DNA from: a virus
Taxonomy: Duplodnaviria > Heunggongvirae > Uroviricota > Caudoviricetes
Strand: one strand, 5' to 3'
DNA length: 51,157 bases
Virus record (IMG/VR): IMGVR_UViG_2925877141_000001
The notes below the pieces were generated by a model, which saw only the letters and a list, made by a program, of their open reading frames with translations, did no database searches and was not told where the DNA came from. Position numbers and translations under genes: made by a program. Shown here piece after piece: positions 1 to 12,446 of this stretch (positions are counted from its first letter, which is position 1; each line of letters starts with the position of its first letter).

Positions 1-756
1 ATGCTTAAACAGCATTTAGAACCCATAGAAAAACGAGGTGTCCTTGAAACACTTCGCCGCATCATATCCCGCCTGAATGAAATTTTCCGCTATGCAGCAA
101 CAGAAGAACTCATAGAATTCAACCCGGCAGACAACCTGGGGCAACGGTTCAGCAAGCCAAAAAAACAGAATATGCCAGCATTACCCCCTTCCGAACTCCC
201 TCGCTTCTTGGTTGCTCTAAACAATGCTTCTATCCGTTTGGAAACAAGGCTACTGATTGAGTGGCAACTTCTCACATGGGTTCGCCCAGGTGAAGCTGTT
301 CGCACAAGATGGTCAGATATTGATATTGAAACTGGCATGTGGAACATCCCGGCGGAGTTTATGAAAATGAAGAAGCCTCACAAAGTTCCACTGAGCAAAG
401 AAGCTTTGCGAGTTTTGGATTTAATGAAAGTCATCAGCGGGCATAGAGAGTGGGTGTTCCCCAGTATCAAAGCTCCACTCAATCACATGCATGAACAAAC
501 AGCTAATGCGGCCATAATCCGTATGGGTTTCGGAGGTGAGCTTGTAGCTCACGGTATGCGATCCATTGCTAGAACGGCTGCTGAGGAGTCTGGCAAGTTT
601 AGGACTGATGTCTTAGAAGCCGCCCTTGCCCACTCGAAGAAAGATGAAATAATTGCAGCCTACAATCGTGCAGAGTATCTCACTGAACGGGTGGTTCTCA
701 TGCAATGGTGGAGTGACTATGTTTCGTCTCAAAAATGCAAAGTTATTGCCGCATAA
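1..756 (+). CDS. Tyrosine integrase (P4/CP4-57-like), C-terminal 251 aa; 5' end outside window
   Basis: ORF open from window edge to TAA at 754-756; translation has integrase catalytic-domain hallmarks (VRPGEAVRTRW, AHGMRSIARTAA, AAYNRAEYLTER). Confidence 0.8.
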   Translation: MLKQHLEPIEKRGVLETLRRIISRLNEIFRYAATEELIEFNPADNLGQRFSKPKKQNMPALPPSELPRFLVALNNASIRLETRLLIEWQLLTWVRPGEAVRTRWSDIDIETGMWNIPAEFMKMKKPHKVPLSKEALRVLDLMKVISGHREWVFPSIKAPLNHMHEQTANAAIIRMGFGGELVAHGMRSIARTAAEESGKFRTDVLEAALAHSKKDEIIAAYNRAEYLTERVVLMQWWSDYVSSQKCKVIAA

Positions 757-818
757 CTCTCCCATGATGGATTAACTATCTTGATTTAGTTAAAGAATTA
801 ATAATCACACCATTAACC

Positions 819-868
819 TATGTGGACTAAGCATAGCCATTTACAAATGGGGACATTGAGTCCACATA
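819..868. repeat. 10-bp perfect inverted repeat (tATGTGGACT ... AGTCCACATa) with 30-bp spacer upstream of serine-recombinase operon
   Basis: Arms at 819-828 and 859-868 read directly; sits in AT-rich leader 170 bp upstream of the 1039 start. Confidence 0.6.
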
Positions 869-1038
869 ACGAAAGCTGTCGGTCATATCAGCTAAATAAT
901 TCACATCTCTTCTCGATTATCATACACCTCGAAGATCTACCAAATTCGCTCTAATCAATGATAAAACAGTTGAATTCGGTTAAAATTTGATCAATTTTAT
1001 CCTCTACATTGTATTGAATCATCCATGAGGTTTCGTGC

Positions 1039-2595
1039 ATGGCTAGCGAAAATGACAAAAATCATAGAGTTAGGGTCGCGCAGTACTTGAGGATGTCTAC
1101 CGACCATCAGCAATATTCTTTACATAATCAGTCCGAATATATCAAAGATTATGCTGAAAAGAACAATATGGAAATCGCTTATACCTACGATGATGCAGGT
1201 AAGAGCGGAGTCAGTATCGTAGGCAGGCATTCTTTGCAGCAGTTACTTAGCGATGTAGAACAAAAGAAAATAGATATACAGGCTGTATTATTTTATGATG
1301 TGAGCCGTTTTGGTCGTTTTCAAAATAGTGATGAAGCGGCATATTATTCCTTTCTATTTGAGAGAAATGGTGTAGATCTTATATATTGTTCCGAACCTAT
1401 ACCCACTAAAGATTTCCCTTTAGAGTCCTCTGTTATACTGAATATAAAAAGATCTAGTGCTGCATATCACAGCAGGAATTTATCTGAAAAGGTATTTATA
1501 GGGCAAGTAAATTTAATAAAGCTTGGTTATCATCAAGGCGGTATGGCTGGTTATGGGCTGAGACGTCTTTTAGTAGACGAAAATGGCATAGCTAAAGAAA
1601 TATTGAGTTTCCGCAAAAGAAAGAGTATTCAAACAGATAGGGTAATATTAATTCCGGGACCAAAAAATGAAATAAAAATTGTAAATAGAATATATGATCT
1701 CTTTATAGATAATAACGTCCCAGAATTCATTATTGCTGAGAGATTAAATGAACAGAACATACCTGCAGAAAATGGAACATTATGGACTCGTGCAAAAATA
1801 CATCAAATTTTGACAAATGAAAAATATATTGGAAACAACATATATAACAAAACCTCATCTAAATTAAAAAGTAGGCTTGTAAAAAACCCCAAACATGAAT
1901 GGGTTAGATGTGACAAGGCATATAAACCTATTATTTCAAAGAAAAAATACAATAAAGCTCAAGAAATAATTCAGCTCCGATCCATTCATTTGACTAATGA
2001 AGATCTATTAGAAAAACTAAAACAAAAATTAGAATCTAATGGAAAACTATCAGGCTTTATCATTGATGAAGATGATACAGGCCCTTCATCTTCTGTTTAT
2101 AGAACCCGATTTGGTGGTCTTTTAAGAGCATATACTTTGATTGGTTATAAGCCAGAACATGATTACAGCTATCTCAAAATAAATGAAGCACTAAGATCAT
2201 TTCACTCAGAGATAATTGAGGATTTTAAGGGTGAAATTTTAAAAAGTAACTGTCATATAGACGAGTATAAATATGCCCCAATGCTTTACATCAATGATGA
2301 GTTTTTAATTTCCGTCCTTGTTACTAAATGCATACATATGAAATCAGGTAAACTTAGATGGAAAGTCCGGTTTGATAACTCACAGAAAGCAGACATAACA
2401 ATTGTTATACGAATGAATTCACAAAATATTTCACCTCTTGATTTTTATATCATACCAAAGATTGAAAACGAATATAATAAAATGTGCATGACGGAAACAA
2501 ACAACATTCGATTAGATCTCTATAGATTTGATAATCTTGATAAACTTCTACAAATTATTACTCGCATGAAAGTGAGGGAACTATATGCTGCCTGA
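1039..2595 (+). CDS. Large serine recombinase-like protein (resolvase catalytic domain + recombinase domain)
   Basis: N-terminal YLRMSTDHQ motif (serine recombinase nucleophile context) and a later recombinase-type segment (HQILTNEKYIGNNIYNK); no clear Cys-rich zinc ribbon; very AT-rich; GAGG upstream of ATG. Confidence 0.7.
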   Translation: MASENDKNHRVRVAQYLRMSTDHQQYSLHNQSEYIKDYAEKNNMEIAYTYDDAGKSGVSIVGRHSLQQLLSDVEQKKIDIQAVLFYDVSRFGRFQNSDEAAYYSFLFERNGVDLIYCSEPIPTKDFPLESSVILNIKRSSAAYHSRNLSEKVFIGQVNLIKLGYHQGGMAGYGLRRLLVDENGIAKEILSFRKRKSIQTDRVILIPGPKNEIKIVNRIYDLFIDNNVPEFIIAERLNEQNIPAENGTLWTRAKIHQILTNEKYIGNNIYNKTSSKLKSRLVKNPKHEWVRCDKAYKPIISKKKYNKAQEIIQLRSIHLTNEDLLEKLKQKLESNGKLSGFIIDEDDTGPSSSVYRTRFGGLLRAYTLIGYKPEHDYSYLKINEALRSFHSEIIEDFKGEILKSNCHIDEYKYAPMLYINDEFLISVLVTKCIHMKSGKLRWKVRFDNSQKADITIVIRMNSQNISPLDFYIIPKIENEYNKMCMTETNNIRLDLYRFDNLDKLLQIITRMKVRELYAA

Positions 2596-3481
2596 AAAAA
2601 ATGAATTCCCAATAATTCAAATTGAGATTGCAAAAATAAAATTTCTTAACCCACGAACAAGAAATAAGTTAGTGCATGAAGAAATAAAGGAAAGCATAAA
2701 AAAAAGAGGATTAAGCAAGCCTATAAGCGTAAGAGCTATTGATGAAGGCGATTTCAAATATGCTTTAATTTGTGGTCAAGGGAGAATAGAGGCTCTCGTT
2801 GCATTAGGTGAAACTATTATTCCAGCAATTATAAGAGATGTATCAGAAGAAGATGCTTACGTTATGAGTTTAGTTGAAAACATTGCAAGGAGAAGACCAC
2901 GTTCTAATGAGTTATTACAGGTGATTAAAGACATGAAAATCAGAGGACTTTCAGACTCCGAAATAAGTGAGATTACTGGATATTCATCGAACTGGGTGAG
3001 CAGTATTAATATGCTACTTGATAAGGGAGAGCATAAACTTCTCTCAGCAGTCGAACGGGGTAATTTGCCTCTGTATCTCGCAGTGCAATTTGCAAGATGT
3101 GAAACTGAGGAAGCACAAGATATTCTTACCGAAGCATATGATAAAAAATTAATAAAAAGTCGGGACATTATAAAGATAAAACACATTCTAAATCAAAGAA
3201 CAGTTGGGAATAAAGGTGCAAAAGCAGCCGGATTTTATTATCACAAACCATCAAAAAGGATGACTGCAGAGGAGTTGATTGAGCTTTATGAAAATAGTAT
3301 CGCTGAACATAAATCTGTTTATAACAACTCAAAATTCATAAAAACCAACCTACTAATAGTAAATGAGATTTTTAACATCATAATGATGAATAAAAGCTTT
3401 CAACATATACTTGAACAAGAGAATCTTTCAGAACTACCATCTCAGATATTAACCCCAGTAAACAAAGAGGTATTAAAATGA
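2585..3481 (+). CDS. ParB/Srx-fold N-terminal domain + HTH protein (ParB-like 1)
   Basis: Overlaps upstream gene by 11 bp; ParB-box-like GQGRIEAL motif followed by HTH-like segment (GLSDSEISEITGYSSNWVSSI). Confidence 0.6.
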   Translation: MLPEKNEFPIIQIEIAKIKFLNPRTRNKLVHEEIKESIKKRGLSKPISVRAIDEGDFKYALICGQGRIEALVALGETIIPAIIRDVSEEDAYVMSLVENIARRRPRSNELLQVIKDMKIRGLSDSEISEITGYSSNWVSSINMLLDKGEHKLLSAVERGNLPLYLAVQFARCETEEAQDILTEAYDKKLIKSRDIIKIKHILNQRTVGNKGAKAAGFYYHKPSKRMTAEELIELYENSIAEHKSVYNNSKFIKTNLLIVNEIFNIIMMNKSFQHILEQENLSELPSQILTPVNKEVLK

Positions 3482-4374
3482 TTCAGATACGTTTTGGCGA
3501 TAATTTTATTTACCTGGAAACTAATAAGTTAATTCCATCTAAGGAATTATTAGAAAACGTAAAGCGAAGCCATAAATATCATCAAATAGTTACCTCTATC
3601 GAAAGCTTAGGTATTATTGAACCAATAATAGTATTCTATGACAAAGATAAAGATGTCACTAAGATACTTGATGGCCATTTAAGGGTTGAGGCTTTAAAAG
3701 ACTTAGGTATAGAAAAAGCTCCATGTATACTTTCGAGCATAGATGATGCTTTCACTCCTAACAAACAAGTGAATCATATAAATGTAGTTGAAGAACATAG
3801 AATGATAATTAAGTCTCTGGCAAAAGTATCAATTGAAAAACTTAGTGCTGCTTTGGGCATATCTGTTGATGCCATAAAAGATAAAGCGAATGTGATGAAC
3901 GGCATAGATCCAAGTGTAATTGCGAAACTTTCTGATAAACCTATACCTAAGGCTACATTTGACATTTTGAGGAAAATGAAGCCAATTCGCCAAATTGAAG
4001 CAGTCGGTACAATGATTAATTTTGATAATTATAGTAAAAAATTTGCAATGAGCATCTTGGATGCAACACCGGCATCGATGATAGTAAATAAAGGGAAAAA
4101 CACTCCCTATAAAAAGGACATAAAAAAAACCATACTTCGTCTGGAACAAGAAATGGCAACAACTTCGGAAGAAACGAAAAAGCTTCAAACCGAGTATGGT
4201 TCAGATATGTTGAAATTCGTTATAATCCAGTCATATATTAATAAATTACTTGGCAATTCTAAAGTTCTTCATTGGTTCTTAGAAAACGAGGTTGATTATC
4301 TTAATGAGTTAAAAAGAATTTCTAGAATAAATTCTTTGGATGATAAGACTCTTACTGAAAACAGCAAGTCATAG
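3478..4374 (+). CDS. ParB/Srx-fold N-terminal domain + HTH protein (ParB-like 2, paralog)
   Basis: ATGA stop/start overlap with upstream gene; DGHLRVEALKDLG motif and HTH-like segment (SIEKLSAALGISVDAIK). Confidence 0.6.
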   Translation: MIQIRFGDNFIYLETNKLIPSKELLENVKRSHKYHQIVTSIESLGIIEPIIVFYDKDKDVTKILDGHLRVEALKDLGIEKAPCILSSIDDAFTPNKQVNHINVVEEHRMIIKSLAKVSIEKLSAALGISVDAIKDKANVMNGIDPSVIAKLSDKPIPKATFDILRKMKPIRQIEAVGTMINFDNYSKKFAMSILDATPASMIVNKGKNTPYKKDIKKTILRLEQEMATTSEETKKLQTEYGSDMLKFVIIQSYINKLLGNSKVLHWFLENEVDYLNELKRISRINSLDDKTLTENSKS

Positions 4375-4688
4375 TCATGTTTTATATAGCCTAAATAAAC
4401 CAAGAAGTATACTTACACAACGACCTTCACGCCGAAGAAGCTGTCAGATACGCCAGCAACCAAAGCATTACGTTTAAGTGTCAGTCATTGATACGAAGGG
4501 ATAACTGCGTATCAGCAGCCGGACATTGAGTCGAATAAAGGCTGGTAGAGAGGGACAGTTCTGTGTCACCGGGAGATTCGTCAGAAACATCAGCGGCAGA
4601 ACAGATGAACCAGCAATTGGTAGTGCACAGAAAACTCTCCAGTATTTAATTATTCAACTTAACACTAAAAAAAATCATGGATTTGCCC

Positions 4689-5528
4689 CTATATTTCCAG
4701 ACATCTGTTATCACTTAACCCATTACAAGCCCGCTGCCGCAGATATTCCCGTGGCGAGCGATAACCCAGCGCACTATGCGGATGCCATTCGTTATAATGC
4801 TCGAACGCCTCTGCAAGGTTCTTTGCTGCCGTTAACCCGTCTGGTTTGGGCATGATACTGATGTAGTCACGCTTTATCGTTTTCACGAAGCTCTCTGCTA
4901 TTCCGTTACTCTCCGGACTCCGCACCGCCGTGTTCTTCGGTTCAAGTCCCAACATCCGGGCGAACTGGCGTGTTTCATTAGCCCGGTAGCATGAACCATT
5001 ATCCGTCAGCCACTCCACTGGAGACGACGGAAGATCGTTGCCGAAGCGGCGTTCCACCGCTCCCAGCATGACGTCCTGTACTGTTTCACTGTTGAAGCCG
5101 CCGGTAGTGACCGCCCAGTGCAGTGCCTCACGATCACAGCAGTCCAGCGCGAACGTGACACGCAGTCTCTCTCCGTTATCACAGCAGAACTCGAACCCGT
5201 CAGAGCACCATCGCTGATTGCTTTCTTTCACGGCCACTCTGCCTGTATGTGCCCGTTTCGATGGCGGTACAGCAGGTTTTCGCTCAAGCAACAGCGCATT
5301 CTGGCGCATGATCCGGTAAACACGTTTGGCATTGATCGCAGGCATACCATCAAGTTCTGCCTGTCTGCGAAGCAGCGCCCATACCCGACGATAACCATAC
5401 GTGGGCAGCTCTCCGATAACATGGTGTATACGGAGAAGCACATCCGTATCATCAGTGTGACGACTGCGGCGGCCATCCATCCAGTCATCGGTTCGTCTGA
5501 GAATGACGTGCAACTGCGCACGCGACAC
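4689..5528 (-). CDS. insD: IS2 orfB (InsD) reading frame, N-terminus apparently disrupted
   Basis: Translation matches InsD from ...[15 protein letters not shown] to ...NRCLEI; canonical upstream start ([13 protein letters not shown]) is not in frame here. Confidence 0.7.
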
Positions 5529-5916
5529 CCGGAGACAACGGCTGACTAAGCTTACTCCCCATCCCGGGCAATAAGGGCGCGTGCGCTATCCACTTTTTTG
5601 CCCGTCCATATTCAACGGCTTCTTTGAGGAGTTCATTTTCCATCGTTTTCTTGCCGAGCAGGCGCTGGAGTTCTTTAATCTGCTTCATGGCGGCAGCAAG
5701 TTCAGAGGCAGGAACAACCTGTTCTCCGGCGGCGACAGCAGTAAGACTTCCTTCCTGGTATTGCTTACGCCAGAGAAATAACTGGCTGGCTGCTACACCA
5801 TGTTGCCGGGCAACGAGGGAGACCGTCATCCCCGGTTCAAAGCTCTGCTGAACAATTGCGATCTTTTCCTGTGTGGTACGCCGTCTGCGTTTCTCCGGCC
5901 CTAAGACATCAATCAT
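5485..5916 (-). CDS. insC: IS2 orfA (InsC), C-terminally extended relative to canonical 121 aa
   Basis: Starts [26 protein letters not shown]; ends ...[11 protein letters not shown]... instead of the remembered ...LLPGDGE stop, suggesting a 1-bp deletion in a G-run. Confidence 0.7.
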
Positions 5917-6412: not shown

Positions 6413-6783
6413 TCATTGAAAACTGCTTTTAGAACTTGATACAACGGGACTAGTCACAACAGGACTATTCTCAACGGGATCATCCTCAGAGGAACTATCA
6501 TCAAAGTCATCATCCATAAATAAAATATCATCGAATGGTGCCACGCCCGTGATGAGTTTTATTTTATTATTACGATCAGTCAATACTCCACTTAAACCGT
6601 TTTCGCTCACAGGTTTTAATGATTTTTCATTACTCTTGTTGTAAGCAGGCGCATTAAAAATACACGGAGTATCAACATCAAACAATGACGTTCCCCAGTT
6701 CACATATTGAATATCATAGTTACTGAAGTTCTGTCCAGAAAAGAAGCACCCCTTAAAATCCAATCCACGTAAATTATATAAAC
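6413..6783 (-). pseudogene. 3' fragment of an unknown gene (pentapeptide-repeat-like N-terminal part, acidic Ser/Asp-rich tail), 5' end removed by IS3
   Basis: ORF runs without a start into the IS3 terminus at 6784; AT-rich. Confidence 0.4.
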
Positions 6784-6813: not shown

Positions 6814-7680
6814 CTAAGCGAGGTTCTTGTTTTCAAATTGTTCCGGACTGAGGCCGCCACACCAACTGTGCCGCCGCCACCGATTGTAATCACATTCGAT
6901 ATAATTAAACACCGTTGCCCGCATTATTTCCCGGCTGATAAAGTGTTCTCCATGGATACATTCCACTTTCAGCGAATGAAAGAAGCTTTCCACGCAGGCA
7001 TTATCGTAGCAGCAACCTTTTGCGCTCATACTTCCACGCAGATTATGCCGCTTCAGTTGCGCCTGATAATCTGCTGAACAGTACTGGCCTCCACGGTCCG
7101 TGTGAACGATAACGTTCCGGGGCCTCTTACGCCGCCACAGCGCCATCTGCAGGGCATCGCAGGCCAGTTGCGCCGTCATGCGTGGCGACATTGACCAGCC
7201 AATAACGGCACGTGACCACAGGTCAATGACCACTGCCAGATACAGCCAGCCTTCATCTGTACGTAAGTACGTGATGTCTCCTGCCCACTTCTGGTTCGGG
7301 CCACTGGCGTAAAAATCCTGCTCCAACAGATTTTCTGACACAGGCAGGCCGTGTGCGCGGTAGCTGACCGGGCTGAACTTCCGGGAGGCCTTTGCCCTCA
7401 GTCCCTGACGGCGCAGGCTTGCCGCCACGGTTTTTACGTTAAAGGGGTAACCCTGAGCACGCAGTTCATCCGTCAGGCGTGGGGCACCGTAACGCTGTTT
7501 TGACCGGGTAAAAGCCGCGAGGACAACGCTGTCGCAGTGTTGGCGGAACTGCTGACGCGTGCTTATCCTTGTCCGCCGCTGACACCACGTATACCAGCCG
7601 CTGCGGGCCACCCGGAGCACGCGGCACATTGCTTTGATGCTGAACTCAGCCTGATGTTTTTCAATAAAGACATACTTCAT
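6814..7680 (-). CDS. insF: IS3 transposase orfB (InsF)
   Basis: 288-aa translation [22 protein letters not shown]...EQFENKNLA recognised as IS3 InsF with DDE region. Confidence 0.85.
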
Positions 7681-7976
7681 TTCAGGCGCTTCGCGAAGTA
7701 TGTCGCGGCCTTTTGGAGGATAGCCAGCTCTTCATCCCGTTCTGCCAGCTGGCGTTTGAGACGTGCAATCTCGGTAGACATCTCCAGTTCACGTTCAGAA
7801 GACGTCTGCTGATTTTGCTGTTTACTGCGCCAGTTGTAGAGTTGTGATTCATACAGGCTGAGTTCACGGGCTGCGGCAGTAACACCGATGCGTTCAGCAA
7901 GCTTCAGGGCTTCACTGCGAAATTCAGGCGAATGCTGTTTACGGGGTTTTTTACTGGTTGATACTGTTTTTGTCAT
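7677..7976 (-). CDS. insE: IS3 transposase orfA (InsE)
   Basis: [31 protein letters not shown]... recognised as IS3 InsE; overlaps orfB in the usual frameshift arrangement. Confidence 0.8.
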
Positions 7977-8041: not shown

Positions 8042-8237
8042 AGGTTCCTAAGCTCACCTTAGTTCGCTTTTTGGTCACAGGCACTGCATATCTGAAATAC
8101 CAATTTTTCTTCCCTCCCTTCGCCAGGGGAGCGATTCGCAACAGCAAACCATCGCCGTCAAAAAGGTTAACCTCTTTTTCGGCAGGTTTGGTGCTTTTGA
8201 TTTCAGTGTCAGTGAGCTTCTTAGCGATTTTGGCCAT
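8042..8237 (-). pseudogene. P4/CP4-57-type integrase N-terminal fragment (~65 aa) truncated by IS3
   Basis: MAKIAKKLTDTEIKSTKPAEKEVNLFDGDGLLLRIAPLAKGGKKNWYFRYAVPVTKKRTK looks like an integrase arm-binding N-terminus; reading frame runs into the IS3 end at 8041; N-terminus lies ~170 bp from the att repeat. Confidence 0.65.
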
Positions 8238-8508: not shown

Positions 8509-9408
8509 TTATGTCTGGATGTGGTCGTCAACACATCCTCTTTTAAATACAGGCGCTTTTACCTTAGTTGGATCATCTGTTTTAAAGATTTTCAATCGTT
8601 CACTGAAGAACATTACCTCAGATCCTTTGTACCGATCTTGAGCACTGTAGTTTATTCCATATACTAATGAGGATGTCTTATACATAGCTTGGATCTCAGG
8701 AGTGTTATCGTAAGAAACAATCCAAGGCGTTTTAATATTATTCTGTACGACTTTTGCAACCCTAACATGATCATCATGATCATAATGGTTGATATATAAG
8801 CCTTTACCTTTTATGTAATAAGGTGGATCCAAATAGGTTAATGAGTTTTGTGGCAATTGAATAACTATTTTTTTTATGAAATCAATTGCATCCATGTTAT
8901 ATAAATCTATTCTGTGACGATTTTCTGATATTCTATGGATTCGAGAAATCAAATCACTCTTATTATAGCGAGCGTCAAGCTTCCATTTCCCTTCTTGATT
9001 TTTACCGCCAATTACACCACCTTTTAATATTCCAGAACGATTTGTTCTATTGAGAAAAAAGGTTGAGAAACCAATTGTTAAAAGATCATGGTCTTTAGGA
9101 TTATTAATTATATCTTTCTGCCTAAACCATTCATCCATTGTAACTTCTGTTCTTTCAACTAAAGAACATAATTGATCTGCATGATTTAATACACTGTGCC
9201 AAAAAGCATAAACAGAAATATTAATATCATTAAGGATGATTTTTTCAGCTGCATTTAGATGTAACAGTTTCAATGCTAAACCAGCACCCCCAGCATATGG
9301 TTCGGCATAATGTATAGGCGAAAGATTATTTTCTTCAATAATCCGAAGCATGAAATTTGCAAGCTTGCCTTTACCGCCAGGATAGCGAAGTGGGGTGTTA
9401 AAACGCAT
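8509..9408 (-). CDS. Dam-family (D12 class) N6-adenine DNA methyltransferase
   Basis: Motifs LRYPGGK, EPYAGGAG and DPPY in the translation; ATG at 9408; AT-rich. Confidence 0.8.
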   Translation of the reverse strand: MRFNTPLRYPGGKGKLANFMLRIIEENNLSPIHYAEPYAGGAGLALKLLHLNAAEKIILNDINISVYAFWHSVLNHADQLCSLVERTEVTMDEWFRQKDIINNPKDHDLLTIGFSTFFLNRTNRSGILKGGVIGGKNQEGKWKLDARYNKSDLISRIHRISENRHRIDLYNMDAIDFIKKIVIQLPQNSLTYLDPPYYIKGKGLYINHYDHDDHVRVAKVVQNNIKTPWIVSYDNTPEIQAMYKTSSLVYGINYSAQDRYKGSEVMFFSERLKIFKTDDPTKVKAPVFKRGCVDDHIQT

Positions 9409-9487: not shown

Positions 9488-11221
9488 TTAGTTATCTGAC
9501 AGATATGATGAGATGGTAGCAGAATCGACACCATGTCCACTTATCATAATAACTTTAAGACTCTTTATTAGTTCATTCTTGAAGCTATCCGATTGCACAG
9601 GATTTTTCTCGACCCAATATCGATATGGGTTATCTTTAACTCGTCCTTTGACTTGGTCCTGAAATTGAGTCGTATGTGCAAAATCTTTAAACAGTTTTCT
9701 CACTCTCCCGCCATGATTTTTGTTAACTTTTTTATAATTATCTATAAGGATTTTTAAATCAATCGGAGCGTTACCAATCTTTAGCGTTGTAATTATGTCT
9801 TTAGCTGTTTTCATAAAAACAGATTTTGTAAATTTATTTTTATTTTCCCAATATGCATCATCAGGTGGTAAATTATATAAAAACTCAAAAATCATTTGAT
9901 CTGGAGGTAAGGTGCTTGGAAGCAAACATAAGTTTTTTTCTTTTTTGGCTTTTTTTGCATTAGCACTGTTGTCGTGAACAACATCACCGTCTAAGACGAT
10001 CAAGCTTTTAGCTGTAAATTCTGGTATTTTTCTTGCCATTAAGTCAAGCATGGCAGAGCAGCTAATATTTATATTCCCTAATGGATTTAATATTTTATTT
10101 ATTTTTCGATCTGTTATCAATTGTTTGAAAAAGTCGAAACCTTCTTTGTCTTCAAAATATACATTTGCTTTTGGAAGACAAATGTCATCATTAATTTTTA
10201 CAGTTTCAACATGTAAATCAGCGTGGATATCTGTCCATGAAAGATTATTCTTTGTTTTAATATCTCCATATGTGTCTGTAAGATATATTGTTTTAAAGCT
10301 ATCACTATCTTGTTTTGAACGATTATAGATATCCTCTATTATTAATGGAGAGTGCGAGGTCATGATTATTTGCAGATCGTATTGTTTTGCTGCTTTAGTT
10401 AGAATATTAATTAACTCTAACTGTGCAGCAGGGAAAAGACCTGCATCGGCTTCATCAATTAACAATATTCCGCCATGATAATCAGAATAAGTTTCCTTCA
10501 ATCTTTTAAATGAAAAAATTGCTTGGATTAATTGTCCAACATTATCTTCACCAACAGATACTGATTGGTGATCATAATTGTCACCATGGACAACCATTGA
10601 ATCGATAATACCTTTTGTTGCTGTTACTGAGCTTCCATTGTTTTTTAGTAAGAGTTGGTTACTCATCATTCTGATTTCATCAGAATTTTCATTGATGTAC
10701 TGAACATCCCGTGTTGAGTAATTAGTCCTTAATGTAATAGGAAGAAGTCGTGCTAAGCTTAAAAAAATAACAGGATGAGTAACGTTTCTACTTTGGTTTT
10801 TTTCCGGTATTGAATCATTTCCCCTGACTACAGGCCTTGATTTATCTCTGTCACTGTAGCTGTATAAACCTAATGTTAGTTTTTCAAGATGTTTGTTCGA
10901 TGCACCATCATAGACACTAATTTTGACGTCCATTGAACCAGGAACATCAAATTGTTCTGAAAGCCTAAAATGTTCGCTGAAAGCTGACTTGAAGCTGCCA
11001 TTTGTTAATGTTTTATATTGTGTTAAATCAGTCTCAGGTTTTTTGGTAAAGTCCTTTGTAAAGCTAAATATTTGGGCGATAATGCCAAGAATTGTGGATT
11101 TAGATGTGCCATTTTTACCACAAATAACAGTTAGGCGAGAACCAAACTCGATGTTTATATTTTTCAGTCCGCGAAACTTCACAACATTTATATTTTTTAG
11201 TTTGGTAATTTGATTTGCCAT
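9488..11221 (-). CDS. ABC-type (AAA_15/OLD-like) ATPase with putative C-terminal Toprim-like nuclease region
   Basis: Walker A GKNGTSKST, Walker B LLIDEADAGLF, H-loop-like TSHSP; C-terminal FEDKEG and LIVLDGD segments resemble Toprim Glu and DxD motifs (unverified); alternative ATG at 11272. Confidence 0.65.
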   Translation of the reverse strand: MANQITKLKNINVVKFRGLKNINIEFGSRLTVICGKNGTSKSTILGIIAQIFSFTKDFTKKPETDLTQYKTLTNGSFKSAFSEHFRLSEQFDVPGSMDVKISVYDGASNKHLEKLTLGLYSYSDRDKSRPVVRGNDSIPEKNQSRNVTHPVIFLSLARLLPITLRTNYSTRDVQYINENSDEIRMMSNQLLLKNNGSSVTATKGIIDSMVVHGDNYDHQSVSVGEDNVGQLIQAIFSFKRLKETYSDYHGGILLIDEADAGLFPAAQLELINILTKAAKQYDLQIIMTSHSPLIIEDIYNRSKQDSDSFKTIYLTDTYGDIKTKNNLSWTDIHADLHVETVKINDDICLPKANVYFEDKEGFDFFKQLITDRKINKILNPLGNINISCSAMLDLMARKIPEFTAKSLIVLDGDVVHDNSANAKKAKKEKNLCLLPSTLPPDQMIFEFLYNLPPDDAYWENKNKFTKSVFMKTAKDIITTLKIGNAPIDLKILIDNYKKVNKNHGGRVRKLFKDFAHTTQFQDQVKGRVKDNPYRYWVEKNPVQSDSFKNELIKSLKVIMISGHGVDSATISSYLSDN

Positions 11222-11279: not shown

Positions 11280-12446
11280 TTATATTGTTATCTTCTTCAA
11301 GCTTGTTTGTCCATCATATTCCTTCAGATATGAGCCATAGTGCCTGAAAAGCATCTCCGGTCCTTTATGCCCCATTTGAGCTGCAAGCCAAAACAGGTTT
11401 GCTCCCCGGCTGATATGGCGGGTGGCGAATGTATGCCTAGTTTGATATGGATTTCTGTAACGAATACCTGCTTTTCGCAATGTTGGCACCCATGCTTTTT
11501 TTCTGATTGCATCAGCACTTGCCCATGGCTTATTGGTCTTTGGATCTTCAAAGACAGTAGCATCCTTCATGAATGTAAATGGCTTCTGGTTTATCAACGC
11601 CAACATTGCTTCTTCAGTCAGTTCAACTTTACGGGTACCGGCTTTTGTCTTTGTTCCTTTGATAACTCCGACAACACTTGCGCTCTGAACATGGGCTGTT
11701 TTTCCAACAAAGTCGATATCATGCCATCGTAGGGCACATAATTCAGAACTACGCAGGCCTGTATGTATGGCGAACCGGAACAGATTTTCCCATTGTTTGT
11801 TTCCGGCTGCTGCTAGTAATGCATCAACTTCTGCTGGTGATAGCGGATCAACCACATAGCTGCTTTCTGCTTCTGACTTATCACTTTGGTAGCGCGAAGC
11901 TGTTACTAACGATACGGGGTTAATTTGAAATACCCCATCGGTCACGGCTTCATCAAGTGCTGACCGTAGGAAAGATAACTGGTTGCGAATGGTTTTTAAG
12001 GTTGTTTTCTGGCTTTGAATCCACGCTTTCAGGGTTGCTGGTGTTAATTCACTTGCAGGGCAAATGTGAAGTGAGGCTAACGCACTACGGCATTTTTTAT
12101 AGCCACCAATCGTAGAGGGTGAAAGTTTTCTTGTTTCGCAGATTTCAAGATATTCGTCCAGGTACATCTTTACCGTTTTGCCTGCAGCAGCATTACCAAA
12201 AATTTTCAAACGAGCAGAACGGGGAAAATATTCTGCATAAATGAATGTTCCCCTTTCGATCTTATTATGGATTTCGCCGAGTGTACGCTCGGCGTATTTA
12301 ATGTTCTTTGGTGTTACTTCCAGATTGGAAAGCGGCTCACGACATCTAACTCCTTTGTAGGTGAAAGTTATATTGATCGTTTCTCCCTGGCGGTGTTTCC
12401 TGATTGTTACGCCGCGCGGTAGTTTGAGCAGTTTTGTCTGGCCCAT
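11280..12446 (-). CDS. int: Phage tyrosine integrase
   Basis: 388-aa ORF with integrase C-terminal catalytic segments (HTGLRSSELCALRW, HTFATRHISRGANLFWLAAQMGH, RHYGSY); overlaps the upstream xis-like ORF. Confidence 0.85.
   Translation of the reverse strand: MGQTKLLKLPRGVTIRKHRQGETINITFTYKGVRCREPLSNLEVTPKNIKYAERTLGEIHNKIERGTFIYAEYFPRSARLKIFGNAAAGKTVKMYLDEYLEICETRKLSPSTIGGYKKCRSALASLHICPASELTPATLKAWIQSQKTTLKTIRNQLSFLRSALDEAVTDGVFQINPVSLVTASRYQSDKSEAESSYVVDPLSPAEVDALLAAAGNKQWENLFRFAIHTGLRSSELCALRWHDIDFVGKTAHVQSASVVGVIKGTKTKAGTRKVELTEEAMLALINQKPFTFMKDATVFEDPKTNKPWASADAIRKKAWVPTLRKAGIRYRNPYQTRHTFATRHISRGANLFWLAAQMGHKGPEMLFRHYGSYLKEYDGQTSLKKITI

Follow-up and report, generated by a model that had tools for sequence, protein, structure and literature searches.

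Large serine recombinases, such as SprA of SPbeta, those of Bxb1 and phiC31, TnpX and CcrB, share a catalytic domain, a long alpha-E helix and a recombinase domain, and the ParB-like proteins of the ParABS and repABC systems (ParB, Spo0J and RepB), together with Noc, KorB and VirB, carry a ParB/Srx N-terminal domain followed by a helix-turn-helix (HTH) or RepB domain. Here we analyze an operon in which proteins of both kinds are encoded side by side. It lies in a 51,157-nucleotide stretch of DNA from IMG/VR virus record IMGVR_UViG_2925877141_000001 (Caudoviricetes), referred to below in its full length as the window, and its three genes, the trio, specify a serine recombinase-like protein (protein 1) and two ParB-like proteins (ParB-1 and ParB-2):

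1039-2595, + strand: serine recombinase with a nuclease-like domain, 518 aa
2585-3481, + strand: ParB-1, 298 aa, with a ParB/Srx N-terminal domain and an HTH/RepB domain
3478-4374, + strand: ParB-2, 298 aa, with a diverged ParB N-terminal domain and a RepB domain

An initial annotation, made from the DNA letters alone, had proposed three overlapping open reading frames of foreign, AT-rich composition, and both points were borne out: exactly the same coordinates were found again on the + strand, with overlaps of 11 nt between the recombinase and ParB-1 genes and 4 nt between the two ParB genes, and the GC content of the trio (0.29-0.36) falls below that of the upstream integrase fragment (0.45-0.47) and of the downstream DNA of the insertion sequences IS2 and IS3 (0.48-0.58). 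We also agree that the combination corresponds to no named system, as it has no PADLOC model, matches only generic NCBIfam and Pfam domains and is described nowhere in the searchable literature, where we found no description of a serine recombinase-PD-(D/E)xK fusion either and where a 2025 survey of ParB-fold proteins does not mention a linkage to recombinases. PADLOC-DB v2.0 returned only weak matches of the ParB N-terminal domains to ParB-methylase models, and nothing for the recombinase, for the version on plasmid pAt, for the alphaproteobacterial orthologues or for the accessory proteins described below. The component superfamilies of the trio are already known; the features for which we found no counterpart are a serine recombinase whose zinc ribbon is replaced by a PD-(D/E)xK domain, its obligate pair of ParBs and an extremely conserved, clade-specific structured element. 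It is because of this architecture and its genomic context that we classify the module as a new kind of system; the E. coli instance in the window, which has neither the small gene nor the 3' element of other lineages, is its minimal form.

Protein 1 had been annotated as a large-serine-recombinase-type protein without an obvious zinc ribbon, and for its recombinase part this description fits well. The protein matches Pfam Resolvase at residues 14-152 (E 8e-22) and Recombinase at residues 210-312 (E 6e-22), contains the YLRMSTDHQ serine motif, and has neither a Pfam match to Zn_ribbon_recom nor a cysteine cluster in its sequence. Residues Y16, R18, S20, Q24, D87, R90 and R93 are invariant in 52/52 members of the recombinase family, the first ~330 residues match solved serine integrases in structure (Foldseek E 2e-16, and by superposition), the recombinase-domain profile aligns to SprA residues 189-300, and the protein matches phrog_95 ("integrase"), with NCBIfam giving only generic CcrB/CcrC/IS607-like matches far below cut-off. 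What the description needs in addition is the C-terminus, where the predicted structure has, in place of the zinc ribbon and coiled coil of large serine recombinases, a helical region (~320-402) and a beta domain of PD-(D/E)xK fold (~405-500). This domain meets the alpha-beta-beta-beta-alpha-beta core fold of PD-(D/E)xK nucleases, and its nuclease-like site comprises (P)D452, where a strand begins, and D468 on the strand that follows; the two are invariant in a 26-sequence alignment. Unlike the PD-(D/E)xK nucleases I-Ssp6803I, Hjc/RecU and the type II restriction enzymes, it has a tyrosine at the position of the canonical lysine (PD...D-x-Y) and is fused to a serine recombinase; R458 nearby is invariant, and an invariant arginine on the preceding strand may stand in for that lysine. 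Protein 1 further differs from the large serine recombinases in that it always occurs with two ParB-like genes and in that neither attachment (att) sites nor a flanking element were found. The resolvases of resolvase-res cassettes are small (~200 aa) proteins with a C-terminal HTH, in contrast to the 518-aa protein of the trio with its recombinase domain and nuclease fold.

The other two proteins are, as annotated, paralogues of the ParB/HTH type, each matching ParB_N and RepB, with 24% mutual identity. ParB-1 matches Pfam ParB_N (1.5e-13) and RepB (8e-08) and lies above the cut-off of NCBIfam TIGR00180, and ParB-2 matches RepB (3e-24) with a ParB_N match slightly under cut-off (1.1e-05); on both, NCBIfam recognizes only the generic parB_part domain, and the PHROG assignments (phrog_3951 for ParB-1 and phrog_31451 for ParB-2) are both of unknown function. 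The closest solved structure to ParB-1 is Spo0J (1vz0) and the sole solved relative of ParB-2 is Noc (7ol9). In ParB-1 the motifs LNPR, GQGRxEA and ENIARR are at least 95% conserved across 70 orthologues, and it keeps motifs where ParABS proteins have boxes II and III; the orthologue alignment of ParB-2 conserves LDGHxR, AFTxNK and QEH and has no ENLQR box. Compared with ParABS and repABC, the arginine patch is reduced (GERRxRA becomes GQGRxEA in ParB-1 and DGHLR in ParB-2), the ParBs are tandem paralogues, the setting is one of chromosomal islands and cargo slots, and the trio lacks ParA/RepA or a nearby replication gene. The reported absence of a ParA partner is upheld on two counts, since none is annotated within 20 kb of the trio in the identical E. 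coli record and none recurs beside the 69 complete loci described next.

The linkage of the three genes is far beyond chance. An exhaustive HMMER search gave 1,348 relatives of the recombinase (E<=1e-30), the best 150 of which are mostly full length, unusual C-terminus included, and a scan of one genome per species gave at least 594, from which 80 loci were fetched as a species-representative sample. The complete trio, in the same order and with abutting or overlapping genes, is present in 69 of the 80, the remaining 11 being contig ends or pseudogenes. IMG/VR holds 176 viral contigs with the module, and the full trio is present in 47/50 of the distant ones, as it is in 28/30 metagenome contigs with enough sequence. 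Order and overlaps are kept at ~45% recombinase identity (33-37% for ParB-2), and the lineages concerned are Alpha-, Beta- and Gammaproteobacteria and a few other phyla. The trio is therefore conserved as a unit across genomes, and two deflating possibilities raised at the outset can be set aside: that the genes co-occur only at this locus, and that they form a cassette tied to ParA or conjugation genes, neither of which recurs beside the 69 loci.

Its distribution is patchy and bears the marks of horizontal transfer. E. coli chromosomes (for example strains 2 HS-C and E24377A) contain the window segment at 100% identity, and the trio is present in 661 of 5,426 complete E. coli genomes (12%), chromosomal in every case, with BL21-derived C41(DE3) and Rosetta2 among the carriers. 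Trio DNA found no match in plasmid or phage collections, including the E. coli plasmids of PLSDB. Proteins at least 96% identical occur in Klebsiella, Enterobacter, Salmonella, Citrobacter and Cronobacter (six enterobacterial genera in all), and this near identity across genera points to recent horizontal spread. Full-length ParB-2 relatives at 33-37% identity are encoded on 103 plasmid records, 69 of them conjugative plasmids, with hosts mainly in Sinorhizobium, Agrobacterium, Sphingobium and Paraburkholderia; all three records inspected (3/3) carry overlapping genes in the order recombinase (~520 aa), RepB-like (~298) and RepB-like (~298).

Pairwise nucleotide homology between loci runs from ~325-475 bp upstream of the recombinase to ~100-225 bp past ParB-2, and beyond these limits the flanks are unrelated between loci. 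Given these defined limits and the heterogeneous neighbors, the module is a discrete, transferable unit. A survey of the closest two substantial genes on either flank of the 69 loci found AbiEii (three times), Fic (three), ParB_N-methylase fusions (four), DUF499 (three), TniQ (three), SNF2/ResIII/PLDc_2 genes (SNF2/PLDc three times), UvrD with AAA_21, WYL and transposases; plain housekeeping and metabolic genes were also among the neighbors, and no ParA, replication or conjugation family recurred. On a Piscinibacter plasmid the trio lies directly past Tn7-like TniB/TniQ, on pAt of A. fabrum C58 between DUF6088/AbiEii and Fic, and on a 30-kb Paraburkholderia plasmid it adjoins Abi and HigA/RelE genes. 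In Enterobacteriaceae the trio lies inside defense islands: the order in E24377A is ssrA, integrase, trio, type I restriction-modification and Kiwa, and a 94%-identical variant in a tRNA-Arg (argW) island sits between RloB/AAA_15 and DUF6119/HxsABCD with integrase fragments on both sides.

Our preferred reading, to which we give a probability of about 0.4, is that the trio is a self-contained DNA-targeting module of conflict or defense (or exclusion). It rests on the strict operon linkage together with discrete boundaries and a patchy, horizontally spread distribution; on the location in defense islands and cargo slots of a recombinase-nuclease fusion with two ParB-fold partners; on a nuclease fold with invariant acidic residues in the recombinase; on the occurrence in 12% of E. 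coli and, as copies at least 96% identical, in six genera; and on the AT-rich composition. A compact overlapping operon that is patchy, horizontally spread and AT-rich is also seen in defense systems such as Kiwa, Gabija, PD-Lambda-5 and AbiE, and the trio shares with these its integrase-proximal, Tn7-cargo and prophage-end slots beside known defense genes. To our knowledge, no known defense system pairs a serine recombinase with ParB-like partners.

In a conflict module of this kind, the trio would be spread horizontally as cargo of islands, plasmids, transposons and prophages and would act in conflicts that set hosts or resident elements against incoming DNA. ParB-1 and ParB-2 would form a hetero-oligomeric DNA-binding or clamping unit, in which ParB-1 appears to keep nucleotide-pocket-like motifs and the degenerate ParB-2 could be regulatory or adaptor-like. 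We hypothesize that this pair recognizes a DNA site or state and recruits or licenses the recombinase-nuclease, which may have lost its own zinc-ribbon/coiled-coil DNA-recognition module and carries the PD-(D/E)xK domain in its place. The recombinase-nuclease would then break or rearrange the bound DNA through the serine-recombinase site, the nuclease-like site or both.

Several observations weigh against this interpretation. The classical roles of large serine recombinases are integration and transposition of mobile elements, not defense, and no PADLOC v2 model matches the trio components of any lineage. Guilt by association is weak here, because housekeeping genes are among the neighbors and mobility genes are also enriched in defense islands. 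The C-terminal domain is perhaps not a nuclease, because the canonical lysine is absent, and it may serve only in DNA binding or oligomerization. The enterobacterial trio co-diverges with one integrase allele, which fits a role in the island backbone equally well, and a conflict model leaves unexplained both the extreme conservation and the solo copies of the structured element that follows the operon in one large clade.

This element, of ~109 nt and three hairpins, lies 3' of ParB-2 in alphaproteobacterial modules (for example L037:4730-4838, + strand; L numbers denote loci). A covariance model finds 39 copies in species loci (L017-L096) and 18 in viral loci (L130-L179), and 55 of these 57 start 2-74 nt past the ParB-2 stop, the exceptions being a copy displaced by an insertion sequence (L086) and a second copy in L020. 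The structure predicted by RNAalifold has 26 pairs, and compensatory changes support 10 of these. Once the alignment is trimmed, pairing extends to 98.0% of cells, compared with 26-43% when partners are slid, and 51 double-change cells are observed against 12.6 +/- 2.7 in shuffled alignments (0/500 shuffles reach 51). G-U pairs, ten of them at one position, are valid on the operon strand only. The element retains ~85% nucleotide identity where the ParB proteins are ~48% identical, and it belongs to no Rfam family: no match reached the gathering threshold in 7 loci, and permissive settings gave only nhaA-II (E 3.3). At least 120 metagenome contigs were recovered by a search with its sequence signature, and in 68 of the 73 that could be evaluated ParB-2 ends 4-72 nt upstream. 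Complete solo copies (98-120 bits) occur in 5/73 (L187, L201, L230, L233 and L241) among housekeeping genes such as AcrB, LysR, molybdopterin oxidoreductase and histidine kinase. The second copy in L020 (17374-17482), ~200 bp long and 5 kb downstream of the first, is oriented like it and brackets a ResIII-helicase and PIN_12 pair.

More than half of the sampled modules lack the element, E. coli included. The window contains no significant match (the best R1 covariance match, in 4425..4680, scores 4.7 bits at E 1.5), and neither the R1 model nor nhmmer profiles gave a significant match in the pAt and betaproteobacterial loci. Another clade has a second, unrelated 3' element of ~230 nt after ParB-2, with 66 predicted pairs and, across its five sequences, weak covariation; it was not detected in the E. 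coli window, in pAt or in most betaproteobacterial loci. Its positions are as follows.

L144:6040-6300
L146:4903-5163
L148:8537-8797
L149:4411-4671
L151:4039-4299

Among the alternatives to a conflict module, the one that survives best, and which we consider somewhat unlikely, is that the module serves a mobile element as its recombination machinery, in which the ParBs would be factors of site selection, synapsis or directionality and the 3' element a DNA end or att site. The serine-integrase core of ~330 residues with its intact catalytic residues would suit such a role, as would the sharp boundaries that are reproduced in unrelated contexts, housekeeping genes included. The 3' element falls exactly at the right boundary, and its direct second copy in L020 and the solo copies are suggestive of such an end. 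Yet it is nearly always a single copy and not one of a flanking pair, the enterobacterial, pAt and betaproteobacterial versions are without it, and terminal direct or inverted repeats at the boundaries of 31 alphaproteobacterial loci did not exceed shuffled controls. Of the 50 distant viral contigs, ~30 have the recombinase within 50-3,400 bp of a contig end and reading inward, like a prophage integrase, with tail and tail-fiber genes, methylases and primases as neighbors; this edge may be an integrase slot or a prophage accessory ("moron") slot. Provirus callers such as geNomad extend boundaries to the nearest recombinase gene, so the edge position may in part be an artifact of boundary calling and is weak evidence for a prophage integrase. 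In E. coli the trio occurs in only two contexts among 661 genomes, with integration always supplied by a tyrosine integrase, and the two candidate sites in the E. coli cassette, a dyad and a 12-nt repeat considered below, are respectively unconserved and within chance.

The argW copies (L003/L004) had suggested a targeted insertion into integrase genes that brings a surrogate 3' end, as a second integrase 3' end, 82% identical and corresponding to window positions 514-757, follows ~47 bp past the trio. No such fragment exists at ssrA, and we reject this idea, which counts against a mobile element as well; most likely, two islets, each bearing an integrase, accreted in tandem and a deletion then left the second fragment.

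We regard as improbable the proposal that the module is a maintenance cassette of islands or plasmids, in which the recombinase would resolve multimers or tandem arrays and the ParBs would act in ParA-independent partition, anchoring or transcriptional silencing, much as KorB, VirB or Noc do. On plasmids, genes for resolution are often neighbors of genes for partition, as in the RK2 par region; both ParBs match RepB/ParB partition families, and the 103 plasmid records with their 69 conjugative members are in keeping with it. The proposal also draws on the enterobacterial islands, where integrase and trio are the sole constant backbone and the downstream cargo varies. There, the integrase allele found with the trio (at least 95% identity, ~630 E. 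coli genomes) continues into the trio in every case, whereas ssrA integrases at ~78% identity (~560 genomes) are without it; because the allele never occurs without the trio, E. coli offers no empty site for comparison. Copies of 86-95% identity are collinear from inside the integrase and end between 25 bp before and 50 bp after the ParB-2 stop, so the inherited unit in enterobacteria is integrase plus trio with nearly no 3' tail. The three-gene unit first proposed thus stands as the trio and, in this family, extends to the integrase. Against maintenance are the lack of ParA and of any recurring replication or conjugation gene, the absence from all E. coli plasmids in PLSDB, the contrast between the small HTH-bearing resolvases of res systems and a 520-aa protein with a nuclease fold, and locations (chromosomal housekeeping, Tn7-cargo and prophage-end sites) where resolution and partition would be needless. 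No repeated parS-like array and no res-like repeats were found in the E. coli cassette, the one dyad there being the poorly conserved one at 819-868.

Least probable of the readings is an RNA-associated recombinase system, overlapping with the others, in which the 3' transcript would be a guide, scaffold or activator and the enterobacterial form an RNA-less derivative: the 98% pairing, the 51 double changes, the operon-strand-only G-U pairs, the fixed position after ParB-2 (55/57 copies and 68/73 metagenome contigs), the conservation beyond that of the ParBs, the lack of an Rfam family and the ~230-nt element of the other clade are all compatible with it, but covariation does not separate RNA from structured single-stranded DNA, the element could equally be a regulatory small RNA, a terminator complex or a 3'-untranslated-region stabilizer, none of its loops is obviously hypervariable and guide-like, and more than half of the sampled modules do without it. 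The bridge RNA of IS110 and the omega RNA of IS200/IS605-IS607 elements share with the trio only the layout, a structured element 3' of the last gene in one large clade; the trio has a serine recombinase with ParBs and not a DEDD recombinase or TnpB, lacks variable guide-like loops, and in E. coli has no element. A composite carries little probability: the ancestral, alphaproteobacterial form would be a recombinase-nuclease directed by a ParB clamp or adaptor and working with a structured RNA, in defense or programmable insertion, with the E. coli/BL21 form as its RNA-less minimal version.

If the preferred reading of defense or exclusion is true, the trio would represent a mechanistically unprecedented class, with a serine recombinase-nuclease as effector and ParB-fold proteins as sensors. 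Its presence in the laboratory strains BL21(DE3), C41 and Rosetta2 could then affect phage and plasmid work done in them. If instead the module serves mobility, it would be a recombinase in which partner proteins, perhaps along with a structured nucleic acid, have taken the place of the DNA-recognition domain, and would be of direct interest for genome-engineering recombinases. Either way, two large hypothetical families ("ParB/RepB-like" and "recombinase family") gain a defined genetic context, and a strongly conserved structured element without an Rfam family is brought to light. The E. coli version is easily testable, consisting of three genes in their native host with no essential neighbors.

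The remaining features around the trio in the window are the following.

1..756, + strand: 3' part (251 codons) of a P4-type tyrosine integrase, with Pfam Phage_integrase and Phage_int_M
757..1038, + strand: leader and presumed promoter region, non-coding, 282 bp, with stop codons in all six frames
4375..4424, + strand: short 3' tail, where the conserved enterobacterial cassette ends on the right (homology limit)
4425..4680, + strand: ssrA-island-specific non-coding DNA up to the IS2 insertion, common only to ssrA-type copies at least 97.8% identical
4689-5916: IS2, frameshifted
6413-6781: YpjCB fragment, one of two
6814-7976: IS3 copy, with another IS3 immediately before the first position of the window
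~8043-8237, - strand: N-terminal arm-binding fragment of the integrase

IS3 separates the 3' part of the integrase from its N-terminal part, and the split integrase, the IS3 copies, the YpjCB fragments and IS2 together indicate an IS3-mediated inversion of the segment that bears the trio. The undisturbed order of ssrA, integrase and trio is preserved in BL21/C41, E24377A and TW10598. On the right, homology to copies of 86-95% identity stops between 4349 and 4424; the segment 4425..4680 is probably outside the module and has no folding signal (z -0.49).

The leader contains no small open reading frame, unlike that of distant relatives, no enrichment of promoter-like matches and no signal of RNA folding (z -0.56). 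Its imperfect dyad at 819-868, with 24-nt arms and a 2-nt center, was considered as a site for the recombinase or the ParBs and is unsupported: ~9-10 of its 50 positions are changed in the 94%-identical argW variant, which makes it the least conserved part of the leader. Likewise rejected as att sites were the two copies of a 12-nt exact direct repeat, GGACATTGAGTC (851 and 4521), which flank the trio. The repeat is within chance expectation, by our estimate ~0.5 such pairs per 4.2 kb, and in diverged copies its downstream occurrence (4521) falls outside the cassette.

The gene content first described, three genes, holds for E. coli, and other lineages add a small upstream gene as well as the structured 3' element. 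At 27 loci a divergent gene for a ~130-aa protein (MFPKKGKxFP...WTGASERTAKNW...RHSDEV) lies 100-200 bp upstream of the recombinase; its WTGASERTAKNW motif is HTH-like, and a divergent ~130-aa frame at 5 more loci is probably an antisense artifact. At 12 betaproteobacterial loci a co-directional gene for a Cys-rich basic protein of ~150 aa is found upstream instead. In the divergent promoter of alphaproteobacterial loci, tandem 15-bp palindromes (GGGCACAnnTGTGCC) at 22-bp spacing lie over the 5' end of the divergent small gene and look like an operator. Nine loci of a betaproteobacterial subclade have a downstream gene of ~450 aa coupled to ParB-2 by overlapping or abutting stop and start; its product is a possible fourth subunit. 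Neither the small upstream proteins nor the ~450-aa protein has a match in Pfam, NCBIfam or PADLOC. We find no fourth gene conserved across all lineages, the small upstream gene having two unrelated forms and being missing in E. coli. Examples of the three accessory genes are given here.

L017:8488-8907 and L015:4083-4490, - strand: divergent ~130-aa gene
L085:8333-8788 and L038:8304-8783, + strand: ~150-aa Cys-rich gene
L034:9323-10726, L157:4289-5638 and L163:3356-4726, and six more loci: ~450-aa gene

Elsewhere in the window, the segment 8509-12446 (- strand, GC 0.29-0.36), at the edge of a lambdoid prophage, holds a known defense system that occupies a prophage-end slot. It comprises a DNA adenine methylase at 8509-9408 (- strand) that matches PADLOC PD-Lambda-5_B (E 2.5e-123), followed by an ABC-type AAA ATPase at 9488-11221 with PtuA/GajA/AriA-like matches and a site-specific integrase at 11280-12446.

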